Virus record (IMG/VR): IMGVR_UViG_2547132278_000021
Span: 1 to 24,897 of that record
Length of the DNA stretch: 24,897 bases
Strand: one strand, 5' to 3'
Source of the DNA: a virus
Taxonomy: Duplodnaviria > Heunggongvirae > Uroviricota > Caudoviricetes
Under the pieces are notes generated by a model that was given only the letters and a program-made list of their open reading frames with translations, did no database searches and was not told the DNA's origin. Shown here one piece after another: positions 15,712 through 22,102 of this stretch. Every line of letters starts with the position of its first letter. Within the stretch, counting starts at the first letter, position 1. A program made the position numbers and the translations under genes.

Positions 15712-16512
15712 TTACTTGATAAATCCTGCCGCCTTTCCCCGCCTGTATTCCTCCATCAGCCACTGCGCCGGTGTTATTCCCCCAAGGGTGGCGGCGTTAG
15801 GCATGCACCCGAAACTTCGCCCTGGTGGATGGTAAACGTCTCTCCCTGTGTCCGGAGGTGTACTCATGGGCTCTGGCTTTGCCTGTATGCTGATCACCGG
15901 ATCGGGTATCTGCTGTCCGGAAGCCACCTTTTTCGCCCAATCATCGAGCAGCCTGCGCGCGTGTTTCTCAACCTCAATCTCGCTAAGCTGGCGCTGATAC
16001 ATTGCACGGCGGGTATCACATACGACCCAGTACATAACCGGATGTCGCCACGGGAATCTTTCGGGACCACCAGGATATAAACTTTTTTCCTTGCTGTACC
16101 GGTGAAACTCCGCCATCACATCGTCAATGGTGACGCCAAGAACCATCTTGCTGTCTTTGCACCACTTGATAAATTGCCCTGGCGACGGCCAGAACGGAGA
16201 TTCACTGGCGCGGGCGTGGCGCATACCAGCAGAAACCTGTTCACGGGTTCGGATCCCCCCTTCGGCAAACGCAGCAATCCACTGCTGTTTTGCAGCAACT
16301 TCCTGCTCTGGCGTCTTCAGGTTGGTTACCACTGCCGCCGGAAACAGTTGTTTCAACTGTTTGAAAAGGGCATCAACAAGCCTCTCTGCTGACATGTTCA
16401 CCACATTGTCATTGTTGACGTACTGATGCTCATAACCTGACATGCGAGAAAGGGCTTCTCCGTCACGGTTTTGTATCGCGGTAAAAACGTTGTTCACAAG
16501 AAATCCTCCCAC
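15712..16512 (-). CDS. Lambda P-like replication protein (helicase loader), 266 aa; start codon uncertain
   Basis: QWIAAFAEGGIRTREQVSAGMRHARASESPFWPSPGQFIKWCK parallels the lambda P core (QWVLAFRENGITTMEQVNAGMRVARRQNRPFLPSPGQFVAWCR, recalled from memory). Track start is a GTG overlapping the O-like gene 3' end. Confidence 0.8.
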   Translation of the reverse strand: MGGFLVNNVFTAIQNRDGEALSRMSGYEHQYVNNDNVVNMSAERLVDALFKQLKQLFPAAVVTNLKTPEQEVAAKQQWIAAFAEGGIRTREQVSAGMRHARASESPFWPSPGQFIKWCKDSKMVLGVTIDDVMAEFHRYSKEKSLYPGGPERFPWRHPVMYWVVCDTRRAMYQRQLSEIEVEKHARRLLDDWAKKVASGQQIPDPVISIQAKPEPMSTPPDTGRDVYHPPGRSFGCMPNAATLGGITPAQWLMEEYRRGKAAGFIK

Positions 16513-17357
16513 GCTTCAGGGCTGTTCCAGTGCGGAACGTTGTTATCAGGTAATGTTGATTGCTTCTGTCTGCTAATCTGCAGCCGCCTTGCCAGCTTCT
16601 GCTCCCACTGTGCCTGATGGTATGCCTTACCCTCAGCCATCCAGTAAATTCTGAACTCTGCAAGTTCCTGTGCCGTTGGCAGACTGTCCAGGTAGATTCC
16701 CTGCAATGAGCTTTTCCGAAGAAAGTCATCTGATGGCTGCCATTGTTCATGCATGACAAATTTGCCTAATTGCCCTGGCCCACCAGGAGGAACAAAGTTA
16801 TTCATCACGGCGTTGTTTGCGCCGGGGTCATGAGGCACAGAATCCCCGGTTTTTGTCCTGCTCTCCCTCTCTTGGTTAAATGACTGGTTATATGACTGGT
16901 TCTGGATCCCGTTTTTGGGATCATTCAACATCCCGTTTTTGGGATCATTCAACATCCCGTTTTTGGGATCATTCAACATCCCGTTTTTGGGATCATTCAA
17001 CATCCCGTTTTTGGGTATATTCCCGTTTTCGGGAACATTACCGTTTTCGGGTTCATTACCCCCTTCCCGGTTGCCTTTAATGTTCCCTTTTTTGGTTATA
17101 TTAAGAGAGAAAACCCGTACTCTTTTCGTCGCCCCCTTTCTCTCTCCGGTATCTGAAATAAGCCCCATTTTCATGAGCGATATAAGCCCGGCCTGCACGG
17201 TTTTTTTATTCAGGCAAGTGTCTTTAACGAGGCGTTCTATGCTGGGGTAGCAGAGGTTATATTCATCGGCTCTGTCAGCCATCGAGAGCAGTATGAGCTT
17301 TAATGACGAGCTACCTGGATCTGTCTCCCAGGCCCAATCTGTTGCATGTCTGCTCAT
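16494..17357 (-). CDS. Lambda O-like replication initiator (287 aa) with internal origin repeats
   Basis: N-terminal winged-helix-like region (LKLILLSMADRADEYNLCYPSIERLVKDTCLNKKTVQAGLISL), central PKNGMLND repeats encoded by the iterons, and a C-terminal domain. GGAGA Shine-Dalgarno before ATG 17357. Confidence 0.8.
   Translation of the reverse strand: MSRHATDWAWETDPGSSSLKLILLSMADRADEYNLCYPSIERLVKDTCLNKKTVQAGLISLMKMGLISDTGERKGATKRVRVFSLNITKKGNIKGNREGGNEPENGNVPENGNIPKNGMLNDPKNGMLNDPKNGMLNDPKNGMLNDPKNGIQNQSYNQSFNQERESRTKTGDSVPHDPGANNAVMNNFVPPGGPGQLGKFVMHEQWQPSDDFLRKSSLQGIYLDSLPTAQELAEFRIYWMAEGKAYHQAQWEQKLARRLQISRQKQSTLPDNNVPHWNSPEAWEDFL
16906..17001. repeat. Candidate replication origin iterons: four perfect 24-bp direct repeats (ATCCCGTTTTTGGGATCATTCAAC), with degenerate copies to ~17060
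   Basis: Seen directly in sequence. Each unit carries an ATCCC...GGGAT dyad. Location inside the initiator gene mirrors lambda ori. Confidence 0.75.
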
Positions 17358-18108: not shown

Positions 18109-18693
18109 ATGAAAAGTATCCAGGACGTCCGCAGGCAAAATCTCAACGACTTGATCGACCGTGAATTCAATGGTGTTCAGACGCGGATGGCAGAAAAACT
18201 TGGAACTCAGGCAAATCTGGTAAACCGCTGGGCTCTTGGCAAGAAGGTTATCGGCGACCAGGTTGCGCGAAAAATTGAAGCTGCCGCCAATAAACCACGT
18301 AACTGGCTTGATATCGATCGCTCGCTTTCTCAAGAAGGTTTTCAGCCTGTCGGCCCGAGTGATATAGGTCAGCTGGCTGCTCACAACCTGGAACGCTGGA
18401 TGAGCGAAAGCCGCGACCTTTCAACGCAGGGAAAACTACACCGCGCATCCGGCGTCGCCCAGGTGACAATCAGCCGCCTGTTAAACAATGAGGTCAGCGT
18501 TTCCATTTCCACCCTGGAGAATGTTGCATCCGCATTCGGGCGTCATGGCTATGAATTACTGATTCACCCGCACGACCCTGCGACTATCAACTATGACCGC
18601 TCGCGCTACGCATTGTTACCCGAAACCGAGAAAGCAAAGATCGAAAGTTACATTGAATTTGTCATCAACCAGAACGAAAAAAGCAAACAATAA
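18109..18693 (+). CDS. Phage immunity repressor candidate: tandem double-HTH (XRE-type) protein with no LexA/S24-like cleavage domain (194 aa)
   Basis: Two HTH-like segments (TRMAEKLGTQANLVNRWALGKK and LHRASGVAQVTISRLLNNEV); divergent from the early-right operon; followed by a strong terminator. Confidence 0.65.
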   Translation: MKSIQDVRRQNLNDLIDREFNGVQTRMAEKLGTQANLVNRWALGKKVIGDQVARKIEAAANKPRNWLDIDRSLSQEGFQPVGPSDIGQLAAHNLERWMSESRDLSTQGKLHRASGVAQVTISRLLNNEVSVSISTLENVASAFGRHGYELLIHPHDPATINYDRSRYALLPETEKAKIESYIEFVINQNEKSKQ

Positions 18694-18713
18694 AACTATA
18701 GTTTTCAGCAAGT

Positions 18714-18739
18714 AAGCCGCCTCATGGCGGCTTTTTTAT
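18714..18739 (+). terminator. Intrinsic terminator after the repressor gene
   Basis: GCCGCC-TCAT-GGCGGC followed by TTTTTT. Confidence 0.7.
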
Positions 18740-18750
18740 TGCCGAAAAGA

Positions 18751-18827
18751 TTACCTTGCAGGTAATTTTTTTAACTCATATCTATTGACATCAAACCAGA
18801 TACGCATAATTATTACCCCAACGGTAA
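18751..18827 (+). promoter_or_regulatory. pL-like promoter-operator cassette: operators TTACC-TTGCA-GGTAA (18751-18765) and TTACC-CCAAC-GGTAA (18813-18827) flanking -35 TTGACA (18785-18790) and -10 AATTAT (18808-18813)
   Basis: Consensus -35, 17-bp spacer; the proximal operator begins at the last base of the -10; operator centres 62 bp apart. Confidence 0.65.
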
Positions 18828-18846
18828 CAAGCCGAGGTAACAAGTT

Positions 18847-19008
18847 ATGCAGTGGAAAATCATCAACGGTTGGTACTGCGTTACTGCATGCGGATTCATG
18901 AGCTGGAAGTTCCGCACCTTACAGGAAGGCATTAAGTGGGCTTTCGTCAGCAAAGAAGCTCGCGATGTGGCCAACGATAACGAGATATGGGAGGAGGTTA
19001 GCAAATGA
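18847..19008 (+). CDS. Small Trp-rich protein (53 aa), first gene of the early-left operon; not in the ORF track
   Basis: ATG 18847 with GAGGT Shine-Dalgarno 8 nt upstream; stop TGA overlaps the next gene's ATG (ATGA). Translation MQWKIINGWYCVTACGFMSWKFRTLQEGIKWAFVSKEARDVANDNEIWEEVSK. Confidence 0.5.
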   Translation: MQWKIINGWYCVTACGFMSWKFRTLQEGIKWAFVSKEARDVANDNEIWEEVSK

Positions 19009-20039
19009 GTGAATTATCAATCATCGAAATCACACCAGACATGGCACCAAGAATTTACGTTGAAAAAGGGCTGGAAAAGTTTCTCGAGCAGATCCGTGAA
19101 GGTGTTAATGAAGTGCCTGACATTAGCACAGACAAAGGCAGAAAGCGCATTGCATCTCTGGCTGCGAAGGTTTCAAGAAGTAAAACAGCGGTAGAAAAAC
19201 CAGGACGTGATTATCTTAAACGCCTGAAAGAACAGCCGAAAGTAGTTGAAGCAGAGTTACGACGCTTCGTAACCGAATGCGATCGGCTTCGTGATGAAGT
19301 ACGCCGCCCACTCACCGAGTGGGAAAATGCTGAGAAATTACGCACTGAAGCACTGCAACAACGCCTGACAAATTTGCGAGCACTAGCTGACGTGATCGAT
19401 CTCTCCGGAAACTACTTGCCATCATCTGACATTCAGGAACGAATTCAAGAGGCTAAATCAGTAGCACTTGATGAAAGTTGGCAGGAGTACGCAGCAGAAG
19501 CTGGAGTAGCCAAGGATTCAACCATCCAGAAACTGGAAGAATCACTCGCAGTAGCTCAAAAACGCGAGCATGAAGCCGCTGAGCTGGAGCGACTTCGCAA
19601 AGAAGCGGAGGAAAAAGCGCGCATTGAGCGAGAAGAGAATATCCGCCGGGAAGCTGCTGAACAGGCCAGGCTCGAAGCTGAACAAAAAGCGAAAGCTGAA
19701 ATTGAGGCTGCGGCACGCCTGGCGGCGGAAGAAAAAGCACGTGCTGAAGTAGCAGAACGTCAGCGAATTGAAGCAGAGCAGCGTGCACGACGCCAAAAAG
19801 AAGAAGCCGTTGCCGAGGAACGCCGACGCCAAGAGGCGGCAGAAAAAGCCCGCCTTGACGAACAGAAGCGTATCGCCGACGAAGAAGCGCGCCGAGCTGC
19901 AGATAAAGAGCATCGCCGTACCGTTAACCGCAGAGTAATCGCAGATCTGATAGCCCAAGGCATACCCGAAGAATTCGCGCAGAAAGCAATGTTGGCTATC
20001 GCTGGCGGCAAAGTGCAGGACGCGTATATCAAATATTGA
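19005..20039 (+). CDS. Hypothetical coiled-coil protein (344 aa) of the early/recombination operon
   Basis: Strong GGAGGAGG Shine-Dalgarno; ~110-aa N-terminal domain, long E/A/R/K-rich heptad region, short C-terminal domain. Confidence 0.6.
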   Translation: MSELSIIEITPDMAPRIYVEKGLEKFLEQIREGVNEVPDISTDKGRKRIASLAAKVSRSKTAVEKPGRDYLKRLKEQPKVVEAELRRFVTECDRLRDEVRRPLTEWENAEKLRTEALQQRLTNLRALADVIDLSGNYLPSSDIQERIQEAKSVALDESWQEYAAEAGVAKDSTIQKLEESLAVAQKREHEAAELERLRKEAEEKARIEREENIRREAAEQARLEAEQKAKAEIEAAARLAAEEKARAEVAERQRIEAEQRARRQKEEAVAEERRRQEAAEKARLDEQKRIADEEARRAADKEHRRTVNRRVIADLIAQGIPEEFAQKAMLAIAGGKVQDAYIKY

Positions 20040-20046
20040 GGTGGGT

Positions 20047-20346
20047 ATGAACGTTAATCAGCAGAAAAATCTTCAAAAAATCATGCTGGCATTCGACAAG
20101 GACTACCGCCTGTCAGAACAGCTATATGACCGACAAGTTGAACTGATCGATAGCATCCGGCTTCATCAACTGGCCTCAACTTTTGACGCTGTAACAGGCA
20201 AAGGAGTTCGCCAGGAAGTGCTGGAGGCAGCTAAAGACAGCCCTGAGTTCGAAGAACTGATGGATGCCTACCGGCGCGAGGCAATGGCAATTATCGCCCG
20301 CTGGGATCTGGCGGATCGGATTGATGGGCAGAGGGAAGCGGCATGA
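20047..20346 (+). CDS. Hypothetical protein (99 aa from ATG 20047)
   Basis: ATG follows GAGGTGGGT; stop overlaps the RecE-like start (ATGA). Track start 20041 is a GTG. Confidence 0.5.
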   Translation: MNVNQQKNLQKIMLAFDKDYRLSEQLYDRQVELIDSIRLHQLASTFDAVTGKGVRQEVLEAAKDSPEFEELMDAYRREAMAIIARWDLADRIDGQREAA

Positions 20347-21164
20347 AACCGGGAATTTATTTCGACATCAGCAACGAAGACTACCACGCCGGTGACGGCG
20401 TGAGTAAGTCGCAACTGGACATGGTTGCCAAGAATCCGGCGCTTCTTAAATGGGTTCAGGCAGCACCAGAAGACGAAGAGAAAAAGTCTGCACTGGATAT
20501 GGGAACCGCATTGCACTGTCTGCTTCTGGAGCCTGGAGAATTCGACAAACGCTTCATTGTTTCACCGAAGTTCGATCGTCGGACGAAACAAGGTAAAGCT
20601 GACGAAGAAGCATTTCTTCGTGATGTAGCGGATATGGGGATTACGGTACTTGATGCCGAGCAGTGGCGGAAACTGGAGCTGATGCGTGATAGCGCAATGG
20701 CTCACCCGGCGGCACGCTGGATGCTGGAAGCACCTGGTTACTGCGAAGCATCAATGTACTGGAATGATGAAGAGACTGGTGAGTTGTGCCGCATTCGTCC
20801 AGACAAATGGCTGAACGAGCACAACGTGATCGTCGACGTGAAAAAGGTTGCAGATATGGACCGTTTTGCACGCCACATCGAGGAATTCCGCTACCACGTG
20901 CAGGACGCAATGTACCGCGAAGGCGCAATGAGGGTTACTGGTCAGCCGCATGGTTTTTTCTTTCTTGCCGTGAGCGAAAGCATTGATTGTGGTCGGTATC
21001 CGGTACGCGTGTTCGAGCTGGATGCGCAGGATGTCGATGCCGGGCACGCTCTGTTCCGCCGGGATCTGAATACCTATCACGAATGCCGCATCAATGATGA
21101 ATGGGGCGGTGTGGAAATCATTAAACGCCCTGAGTGGGCACGCAAACAGGATATGTACATATGA
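20343..21164 (+). CDS. RecE-like exonuclease (exonuclease VIII C-terminal-domain type, PD-(D/E)XK), 273 aa
   Basis: N-terminus MKPGIYFDISNEDYHAGDGVSKSQL and nuclease motifs ...RIRPDKW...IVDVKKV; immediately upstream of and coupled to recT. Confidence 0.65.
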   Translation: MKPGIYFDISNEDYHAGDGVSKSQLDMVAKNPALLKWVQAAPEDEEKKSALDMGTALHCLLLEPGEFDKRFIVSPKFDRRTKQGKADEEAFLRDVADMGITVLDAEQWRKLELMRDSAMAHPAARWMLEAPGYCEASMYWNDEETGELCRIRPDKWLNEHNVIVDVKKVADMDRFARHIEEFRYHVQDAMYREGAMRVTGQPHGFFFLAVSESIDCGRYPVRVFELDAQDVDAGHALFRRDLNTYHECRINDEWGGVEIIKRPEWARKQDMYI

Positions 21165-22102
21165 GCAACGACATCGCAAACATCAACGCACCAGTAGACA
21201 CAGCAATCGCTGGAACTGCTGCAACTATTTTCAGCCCAGACGGCTTGAACCAACTGATGAAATTCGCCGAGGTAATGGCGCAAAGCCGCGTAACGGTACC
21301 GGCGCACCTCGCCGGGAAACCAGCTGATTGCATGGCCGTGGCAATGCAGGCTGCGCAGTGGGGAATGAACCCGTTTGCCGTGGCTCAGAAAACCCATGTT
21401 GTGAACGGCACGCTAGGTTATGAAGCCCAATTAGTAAACGCAGTTATCTCAACGATGTCGCCAACAAAAGATCGCATCAACTACGAGTGGTTCGGGCCGT
21501 GGGAACGAGTGATCGGTAAGTTTGTTGAGAAAACATCCAAAAACGGCAATCCATATATCGCACCAGGCTGGACTCTAAAAGACGAAGAAGGCTGCGGTGT
21601 TCGCGTATGGGCAACCATGAAGGGCGAGGATCAACCTCGAGTGCTTGAGTTAATGCTGTCTCAAGCACAGGTAAGAAACTCCACACTTTGGGCCAGTGAT
21701 CCGAAACAACAACTCGCATACCTTGCGACAAAACGCTGGTCTCGCCTGCACTGTCCTGACGTAATCATGGGCGTCTACACCCCAGACGAATTACAGGAAA
21801 CGGCACCGCGCGTTGAGCGAGACATTACTCCGCAAACGACCACTGCTGCGGGAATGAACAGTCTGATCAACGCTAAACCAGCGAAAAAGCCTGATGAGCA
21901 AACGCGTAAATCGGACGGCCGTGATCCAGAAGAAATGCTGATGGCCTTTACCAGCGCAGCGATGAATTACAGCACTGTCTCCGAACTGGATAAGGCTTAC
22001 AAATACATTGCACAAAAACTTTCAGATGATGACGAACTGCTGACAAAAGCCACCGACGTTTACAGCGTTCGTCGGGAAGAATTAAACGAAACATCTATGT
22101 AA
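21161..22102 (+). CDS. recT: RecT-family single-strand annealing recombinase (313 aa from ATG 21161)
   Basis: Conserved region CMAVAMQAAQWGMNPFAVAQKTHVVNGTLGYEAQL. ATG 21161 overlaps the RecE-like TGA; the track's earlier start 21134 lies inside the upstream gene. Confidence 0.75.
   Translation: MSNDIANINAPVDTAIAGTAATIFSPDGLNQLMKFAEVMAQSRVTVPAHLAGKPADCMAVAMQAAQWGMNPFAVAQKTHVVNGTLGYEAQLVNAVISTMSPTKDRINYEWFGPWERVIGKFVEKTSKNGNPYIAPGWTLKDEEGCGVRVWATMKGEDQPRVLELMLSQAQVRNSTLWASDPKQQLAYLATKRWSRLHCPDVIMGVYTPDELQETAPRVERDITPQTTTAAGMNSLINAKPAKKPDEQTRKSDGRDPEEMLMAFTSAAMNYSTVSELDKAYKYIAQKLSDDDELLTKATDVYSVRREELNETSM

Follow-up and report, generated by a model that had tools for sequence, protein, structure and literature searches.

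A candidate Gam analogue and an optional one-gene cassette upstream of the RecE-like/RecT pair of an epsilon15-like prophage

What do the genes that stand just ahead of a phage recombination module contribute to it? The question is raised by a 24,897-nucleotide (nt) stretch of viral DNA (IMG/VR record IMGVR_UViG_2547132278_000021, positions 1 to 24,897; hereafter the window), which represents an epsilon15/phiV10-like (Uetakevirus) prophage of Escherichia coli. In this window, a 344-amino-acid (aa) protein and a 99-aa protein are encoded upstream of a RecE-like exonuclease and the single-strand annealing protein RecT. An initial annotation, made from the sequence alone, had noted that the two unassigned genes occupy the place where lambdoid phages often encode nuclease inhibitors or recombination accessories, and had treated their products as a coupled pair. 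That reading is partly supported by the present analysis, in that the positional idea is right and the coupled pair is wrong.

The explanation that we favor, and to which we would give an even chance, is that these are two independent accessory genes, from whose context and properties we infer an analogue of lambda Gam in the case of the 99-aa protein and a recombination helper in the case of the 344-aa protein. Both genes would head a repressor-controlled early operon that ends in the RecE-like exonuclease and RecT. The 99-aa protein, which is small, acidic, predicted to be helical and probably dimeric, and whose core gene is presumably translationally coupled to the exonuclease gene, would neutralize a host nuclease acting on double-stranded DNA ends, most likely RecBCD. 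With this nuclease blocked, linear phage DNA would persist and become a substrate for the RecE/RecT that the phage itself encodes. The 344-aa protein, in which a charged, putatively rigid helix that varies in length connects a conserved N-terminal domain to a small basic C-terminal one, may be a generic and dispensable recombination helper, possibly a rigid tether between two binding domains. As its family partners every class of annealing protein (RecT, Red-beta, Erf and Sak4), it would act on something that all modules have in common, such as DNA ends, single-stranded DNA with SSB, or a host repair factor, rather than on any single recombinase, and would not duplicate Gam.

The two genes (19005-20039 and 20047-20346, respectively, + strand) are present as the initial annotation described them. 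Both are real and under purifying selection, as the ratio of nonsynonymous to synonymous substitution rates against homologues is well below 1 (0.07-0.16 for the 344-aa gene and 0.13-0.27 for the 99-aa gene). Moreover, both products match a PHROG family over the full length: the 344-aa protein phrog_1376 (E 5.2e-122; residues 2-344 on profile positions 5-362 of 362), and the 99-aa protein phrog_856 (E 1.1e-54; residues 1-99 on profile positions 1-99 of 99). The open reading frame (ORF) of the latter spans 20041-20346 (+) and encodes 101 residues from a GTG codon, or 99 residues from the ATG at 20047, which has the ribosome-binding site GAGGTGGGT. The operon consists of, in order, a 53-aa gene (18847-19008), the 344-aa gene, the 99-aa gene, the RecE-like nuclease gene (20343-21164) and the RecT gene (21161-22102), all on the + strand, with no + strand terminator found inside it. 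The proposed RecE-like/RecT pair downstream was confirmed, the former being a DUF3799 nuclease of the PD-(D/E)XK type (phrog_412) that comprises the nuclease domain only. ATGA stop/start overlaps link the 53-aa and 344-aa genes, the 99-aa and RecE-like genes, and the RecE-like and RecT genes (the ATG at 21161 overlapping the RecE stop), and a gap of 7 nt separates the 344-aa gene from the 99-aa gene. The region 18700-21200 shares 97.6% identity with phage phiv142-3 (Uetakevirus), and the gene order matches the annotation of that phage.

The 344-aa gene is a precise, optional one-gene cassette. In phiV10, the 53-aa gene runs straight to the 99-aa gene and the 344-aa gene is absent; the alignment puts the cassette junctions precisely at the borders of the 344-aa gene, between the two ribosome-binding regions. 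The module is carried by 562 of 5,426 complete E. coli genomes, and the 344-aa gene by 26 of these 562. Among relatives, phiV10, epsilon15 and some 95% of the E. coli prophages with the module possess the 99-aa gene and lack the 344-aa gene. On plasmids, members of the 344-aa family were found in 27 of 72,556 records, mostly of phage size.

Beyond this group of prophages, the family of the 344-aa protein keeps constant company with recombination genes. The comparison covered 80 IMG/VR loci with a gene related to that of the 344-aa protein, namely the best-scoring ones with at least 50% identity; 72 of them have at least 2.5 kb of downstream sequence. In all of these 72 loci, a gene for an annealing protein or exonuclease starts 197-1213 nt downstream, with a median of 304 nt. 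The next gene after the 344-aa family member is a true Gam gene in 18 of the 72; since the family co-occurs with true Gam, it is no substitute for Gam. The architectures include the 344-aa family followed by a phrog_856/3486-type gene, RecE and RecT; by Gam, RecE and RecT; by Gam, an annealing protein and an exonuclease; and by Erf and SSB, so that modules with and without an exonuclease are represented. Similar arrangements are seen in more distant phages: family members adjoin Erf and an exonuclease in Pseudomonas phages JBD44 and Aurca01, lie upstream of exoVIII and Bet in Serratia phage Eta and upstream of Erf in the pL operon of Sf6, HK544 and GF-2, and follow Sak4 and SSB in Vibrio phage Seahorse. 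Our best guess from this context is that the 344-aa protein is a generic accessory of recombination modules, at whose edge its family is always located. As a separate observation, a 170-aa protein of phrog_21613, a family of unknown function, is encoded between a Gam-like gene and an exonuclease gene in locus L085 (7255-7764) and also in L086; sitting where one would expect an annealing protein, it is a candidate for an unrecognized one.

The same context has one main alternative reading, which we consider unlikely but not negligible: the 344-aa protein might be a "moron" for anti-defence, host takeover or exclusion that takes no part in recombination and owes its position to a permissive insertion point where early left operons start. 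This would agree with its being a facultative cassette with exact gene-border junctions, rare among sister prophages, with its predicted early expression, and with the lack of any match to DNA-metabolism folds; known lambdoid early-operon cassettes do include ral, sieB and kil. A neutral insertion site is, however, hard to square with the constancy of the neighbors: recombination genes adjoin the family member in each of the 72 loci, and again in distant phages that infect Pseudomonas, Serratia, Edwardsiella and Vibrio, with four classes of annealing protein represented. In addition, the parallel with DUF1351 discussed below points to a link with recombination.

The 344-aa protein has a three-part build, which is kept in an alignment of 45 diverse members of its family. 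A search with the N-terminal domain yielded 4,937 clusters at 50% identity (E<=1e-3), whose members are typically 320-385 aa long, and Sf6 gp33, JBD44 gp65 and Seahorse gp09 match the same phrog_1376 profile. The conserved N-terminal domain (residues 1-185, encoded at 19005-19559, +) has four invariant residues (K60, K75, D93 and P102) and the motifs VPD..T.KGR..IASLA.KVSRSKT, LRDEVR.PLT.WE and IDDSWEEF; its predicted local distance difference test (pLDDT) values are ~76-98, mostly 85-98. It is followed by a helix of variable length rich in Glu, Ala, Arg and Lys (residues 186-300, 19560-19904, +). The conserved basic C-terminal domain (residues 301-344, 19905-20036, +), with an isoelectric point (pI) of 9.7, carries the motif HR..IN...L..G..E..AK..V.AIA.G.IP.V.I.Y, in which the terminal Tyr is nearly invariant. 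The AlphaFold2 model of the whole protein is confident (pLDDT 88.7) and essentially all-helical; it has three helices of great length, and residues 240-248 form a turn predicted with low confidence. Of β-structure it shows only two isolated bridge residues.

The initial annotation had described a long charged coiled coil. A long charged segment is indeed present, but its signature is not that of a classical coiled coil: residues 186-300 are composed of 85% Glu, Lys, Arg, Ala and Gln and 10% hydrophobic residues, with dense opposite charges at i/i+4 spacing, which looks like an ER/K-type single α-helix serving as a spacer, or like a loose hairpin arm. Neither protein was found to contain an assignable motif, as had been stated, with nothing in Pfam, NCBIfam, PADLOC, PDB sequences or PDB folds. 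For the 344-aa protein, no relative in Pfam, NCBIfam, PADLOC or PDB emerged beyond low-complexity noise, its model had no Foldseek match in PDB, and BFVD returned uncharacterized phage proteins only. A search of PADLOC-DB at E<=0.1 gave no match for the 53-aa, 344-aa, 99-aa or RecE-like proteins.

The 99-aa gene, by contrast with this cassette, is a fixture: it lies directly upstream of the RecE-like gene in 36 of 36 Uetakevirus phage records. The protein is acidic, with a pI of 4.84 and Asp or Glu in 9 of 29 invariant columns, and the AlphaFold2 model, of moderate confidence at a pLDDT of 70 and a predicted template modelling score (pTM) of 0.37, shows an all-helical hairpin with helices at residues 3-51, 56-63 and 66-98. 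Its family, phrog_856, has only 67 clusters, all from Enterobacteriaceae, and is homologous to phrog_3486 (hmmscan E 6.5e-4; hhalign 92.8%, P 4e-7).

The place of this gene in the operon can be taken by a true Gam gene. Among the 80 IMG/VR loci, 49 have a RecE-like gene, and the ORF just upstream is of the phrog_856/3486 type in 38, belongs to phrog_1050 in eight and is an extra gene in three. The eight Gam genes in the slot match phrog_1050 (E 3e-24 and 1e-12; 3e-24 to 2e-44 for the Gam-like genes of related genomes), a family annotated "gam-like host nuclease inhibitor", and they overlap the next gene by ATGA just as the 99-aa gene does (L049 and L061). Over whole loci (n=80), 47 carry the 856/3486 type only, 23 a Gam-like gene only, and none carries both. 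In the sister genomes where Gam stands in for the 99-aa gene, the RecE-like nuclease is 66-68% identical and no 856/3486-type gene exists anywhere in the locus. The rest of the window yielded no homologue of Gam or Abc2. We read the 99-aa protein as a Gam analogue because the known RecBCD inhibitors Gam and gp5.9 are likewise small acidic helical dimers unrelated to each other (PMC9836394); given its position, exclusivity and physical chemistry, a non-homologous analogue of lambda Gam is our best guess. The initial remark that lambdoid phages often encode nuclease inhibitors at this place holds as regards position for the 99-aa gene, which is in the Gam slot.

Two other identities were considered and rejected. 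Homology of the 99-aa protein to P22 Abc2 was not borne out by hhalign (probability <=0.7% against the Abc2 proteins of Sf6, HK544 and locus L072), and Abc2 is basic, with a pI of 8.95, unlike the acidic 99-aa protein. A weak match to Pfam GP46 (E 0.081) occurred in only 1 of 26 family members. In a few loci, genes are inserted between the 99-aa and RecE-like genes, namely a 94-aa ORF in L025 and L033 (7372-7656) and an HNH-endonuclease-like ORF in L060 (7354-7776); because of these extra genes, the junction appears to be another insertion hotspot.

Rather unlikely, in our view, is the main alternative account of the 99-aa protein, in which it would serve the truncated RecE-like nuclease as a dedicated subunit or assembly factor and would not inhibit a host nuclease; it might take the role of the extended N-terminal portion of Rac RecE, or connect RecE with RecT. 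Its gene is always immediately upstream of the RecE-like gene and overlaps it, the family is restricted to phages with this DUF3799 nuclease, and the nuclease covers only residues 606-873 of the 877-position Rac RecE model of NCBIfam. Nevertheless, the Gam-bearing sister genomes described above possess a closely similar nuclease together with RecT, joined to Gam by the same overlap, and dispense with any gene of the 856/3486 type. Moreover, the NCBIfam RecE model has no match to the 99-aa protein.

Several points weigh against the Gam analogue and recombination helper proposed here. As regards the 99-aa protein, no sequence homology to Gam was found, as neither Pfam nor PHROG gave a Gam match, and hhalign against a Gam alignment that includes lambda Gam returned probabilities of 1.2% (856 type) and 0.9% (3486 type). 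The AlphaFold2 monomer, itself only moderately confident, had no Foldseek match in PDB at E<=10, although Gam structures are deposited there. The net charge of -5 is milder than the -9 to -10 of Gam proteins. The equivalence of the slot is circumstantial, as the loci compared are phylogenetically related. As regards the 344-aa protein, adjacency falls short of proving that it takes part in recombination, cassettes of early operons often serve anti-defence or exclusion, and viable sister phages do without the gene. The 80-locus IMG/VR sample is biased towards enterobacterial phages, and no characterized homologue was found for either protein. Clear homology to a characterized family unrelated to recombination or anti-defence, which would have told against the initial annotation, was likewise not found for either protein.

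The coupling of the two proteins, as first suggested, holds for the operon adjacency across the 7-nt gap and not for a two-protein unit, since the presence of the two genes is uncoupled. It is very unlikely that they form one two-component system, for instance a helical scaffold and a small partner that jointly inhibit a nuclease, even though the genes adjoin in one operon and both occur in 40 of the 80 IMG/VR loci. The 99-aa gene is found in all 36 Uetakevirus records, mostly without the 344-aa gene, which reaches only 26 of the 562 genomes with the module; where no 99-aa homologue is present, members of the 344-aa family accompany true Gam, Erf and SSB, Bet and an exonuclease, or Sak4; and the tight ATGA overlap joins the 99-aa gene to the RecE-like gene, not to the 344-aa gene.

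That the 344-aa protein is TolA-like or a cell-envelope protein is effectively refuted: relatives in phage and plasmid records (including JBD44 gp65, Aurca01_00053, Seahorse gp09 and E. coli phage-plasmids) are labelled "TolA protein", "cell envelope biogenesis protein" or "fibrinogen binding protein", and NCBIfam gives a match at E 0.003, but the match (NF007065), at 16.7 bits, falls far below the cut-off of 213 and is confined to the E/A/K/R-rich helix, the protein has no hydrophobic or membrane segment (maximum 19-residue Kyte-Doolittle mean 0.78), and its conserved N- and C-terminal domains have no TolA counterpart, so that the label is a low-complexity artefact of the charged helix and should be dropped from the annotation of these relatives.

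Upstream of the operon, a repressor gene with two helix-turn-helix motifs (18109-18693) lies on the same strand as the recombination genes, with a terminator in between. The latter is an intrinsic-terminator-like hairpin with a T-run at 18714-18733 (+), and phiV10 has a terminator annotated at the same place. The segment 18745-18844 (+) is a candidate early promoter/operator region, as judged from consensus matches alone: on either side of a sigma-70-like promoter (TTGACA-17-AATTAT) at 18785-18813 (+) lie a palindrome (18745-18771) and two copies of GGTAACAAG (18823-18844), both candidate operators. The first gene of the operon, encoding the 53-aa protein (phrog_898, unknown function), is conserved in phiV10-like loci. 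Beyond RecT follow an AlpA-like gene, an MT-A70 methylase gene and a P4-type integrase gene.

Some further observations concern the neighboring genes. In RefSeq phiV10 (L002, 4597-6357), RecE and RecT are annotated as a single fused ORF of 586 aa; they are separate, with the ATGA overlap, in the window (20343-22102) and in most loci. The RecT alleles of IMG/VR loci L012-L066 share 47-98% identity with the RecT of the window, compared to 66-99% for the adjoining RecE-like nuclease, and the spread among the RecT proteins points to a probable mosaic exchange of the annealing protein inside an otherwise conserved module. The C-terminal part of the window RecT (21725-22084) shares 31% identity with the Erf-like protein of phage HK544 (E 8e-8), with matches to phrog_12233 and phrog_17377 alongside, which suggests a C-terminal domain common to different annealing-protein families. 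On the minus strand, the replication-protein gene (16494-17357) contains repeats at 16873-17060, comprising a perfect 24-nt tandem repeat in 4.6 copies (16906-17015) flanked by 12-nt (2.4 copies) and 18-nt (3.1 copies) repeats. They encode NGMLNDPK four times, and look like the iterons of an origin within an initiator gene, as in lambda O.

Both proteins are already catalogued in PHROG families of unknown function, and our literature search found no functional study of these families or of the "TolA"-annotated genes beside erf. What is new is the replacement of the 99-aa gene by Gam in the same slot and the exclusivity of the two, the standing of the 344-aa gene as a cassette, the size and three-part build of its family together with its invariant setting in recombination modules, and a possible link of that family to DUF1351. 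A wider generalization, which we hold to be doubtful, would make the phrog_1376 family, maybe together with DUF1351 as one superfamily, a widespread, unrecognized additional component of phage annealing systems, and phrog_856/3486 a new class of RecBCD inhibitors with a distinct structure. In that generalization, phrog_1376 proteins might serve as a rigid tether that bridges DNA ends or links the machinery to a host factor, for example SSB or SbcCD.

These findings leave current understanding intact; their relevance is to recombineering and to the arms race over RecBCD. Phage RecET/Red modules are the workhorses of recombineering, and Gam is a classic front between phage and host over RecBCD. 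A non-homologous Gam analogue, if true, would enlarge the small set of RecBCD inhibitors and be a candidate trigger of defences that guard RecBCD. The family of the 344-aa protein, with ~4,900 clusters flanking every annealing-protein class, has neither a Pfam entry nor a name; if it truly assists recombination, it might make recombineering easier to transfer to new hosts.

Among known systems, the closest parallels to the 344-aa protein in position come from phages of Firmicutes, in which the gene beside erf, sak4 or recT often encodes a Mu-Gam-like, DUF2483, DUF1351 or Sipho_Gp157 protein, the common genomic position being taken as a sign of analogous function (PMC8093625). With Mu-Gam-like, DUF2483 and Sipho_Gp157 proteins, the 344-aa protein has the genomic position in common. 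Its AlphaFold2 model lacks the β-barrel of Ku and Mu Gam, and it has no match to Mu-Gam in Pfam. In addition, its family co-occurs with lambda-type Gam, so that it is no simple stand-in for an end-protection protein.

DUF1351 (Pfam PF07083; PHROG 674) shares several features with the 344-aa family. Its members, from phages of Firmicutes and Bacteroides, are ~280-350 aa long with an N-terminal helical domain, and both families lie beside genes for single-strand annealing. We examined a set of ten DUF1351 proteins; a homologue query gave 15 proteins, and a scan of viral contigs 10 loci. DUF1351 stands beside Sak4, Erf, Bet or RecT in six of seven phage records, the exception being Bacteroides phage B40-8, with no recombinase annotated nearby; no DUF1351 gene was found in Listeria phage A118. 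Comparison of the N-terminal domains of the two families by hhalign gave a probability of 52% (P 1.5e-4 local, 2.5e-5 global), colinear over ~160 columns, with scores of 33.7 local and 28.2 global against 17.3 and 2.2 for the reversed and at most 25.4 and 19.4 for block-shuffled controls. On the other side, the full-length comparison reached only 24% (P 8e-4), the register of the alignment differs between the Viterbi, maximum-accuracy (MAC) and HMMER alignments, HMMER profile-versus-sequence tests were weak and out of register (per-sequence P 7e-5 to 4e-3), and PF07083 matches neither the window protein nor any of 45 family members at E<=1. DUF1351 proteins also lack the ER/K-rich spacer and the HR..IN / IP.V.I.Y C-terminal domain, and their order relative to the annealing gene varies. 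Homology between the two families is therefore unproven, whereas the likeness in size, position and range of partners stands. No functional study of DUF1351 was found in the literature.

The central segment of the 344-aa protein (residues 186-300) is akin in composition and charge pattern to ER/K helices, such as that of myosin VI, and to domain II of TolA, and the weak matches to myosin VI, zuotin, ATP synthase b and TolA arise from these residues only. This likeness is compositional and not a matter of homology, and the conserved terminal domains are unrelated to those proteins.

For the 99-aa protein, the closest known systems are inhibitors of RecBCD. T7 gp5.9, a protein of 52 aa, is not located beside a RecE/RecT pair, and the 99-aa protein fits the picture of a small acidic helical protein by description. 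Structures of Gam and of RecBCD with Gam have been solved, and gp5.9 is a DNA mimic that forms a parallel coiled coil (PMC9836394). The comparison with lambda Gam was made against the Gam families PHROG 1050 and 259, both "gam-like host nuclease inhibitor", and the Pfam family of lambda Gam (PF06064). Despite the lack of detectable sequence homology or a Foldseek match, and a weaker net charge in the 99-aa protein, the two are both acidic and, for the 99-aa protein by prediction, all-helical, and of similar size (Gam proteins have 94-105 aa, GamS 98 aa, and a pI of 4.4-5.0). Moreover, they occupy the same slot directly upstream of the recombination genes, with the same stop/start overlap with the next gene, and exclude each other across the 80 loci.

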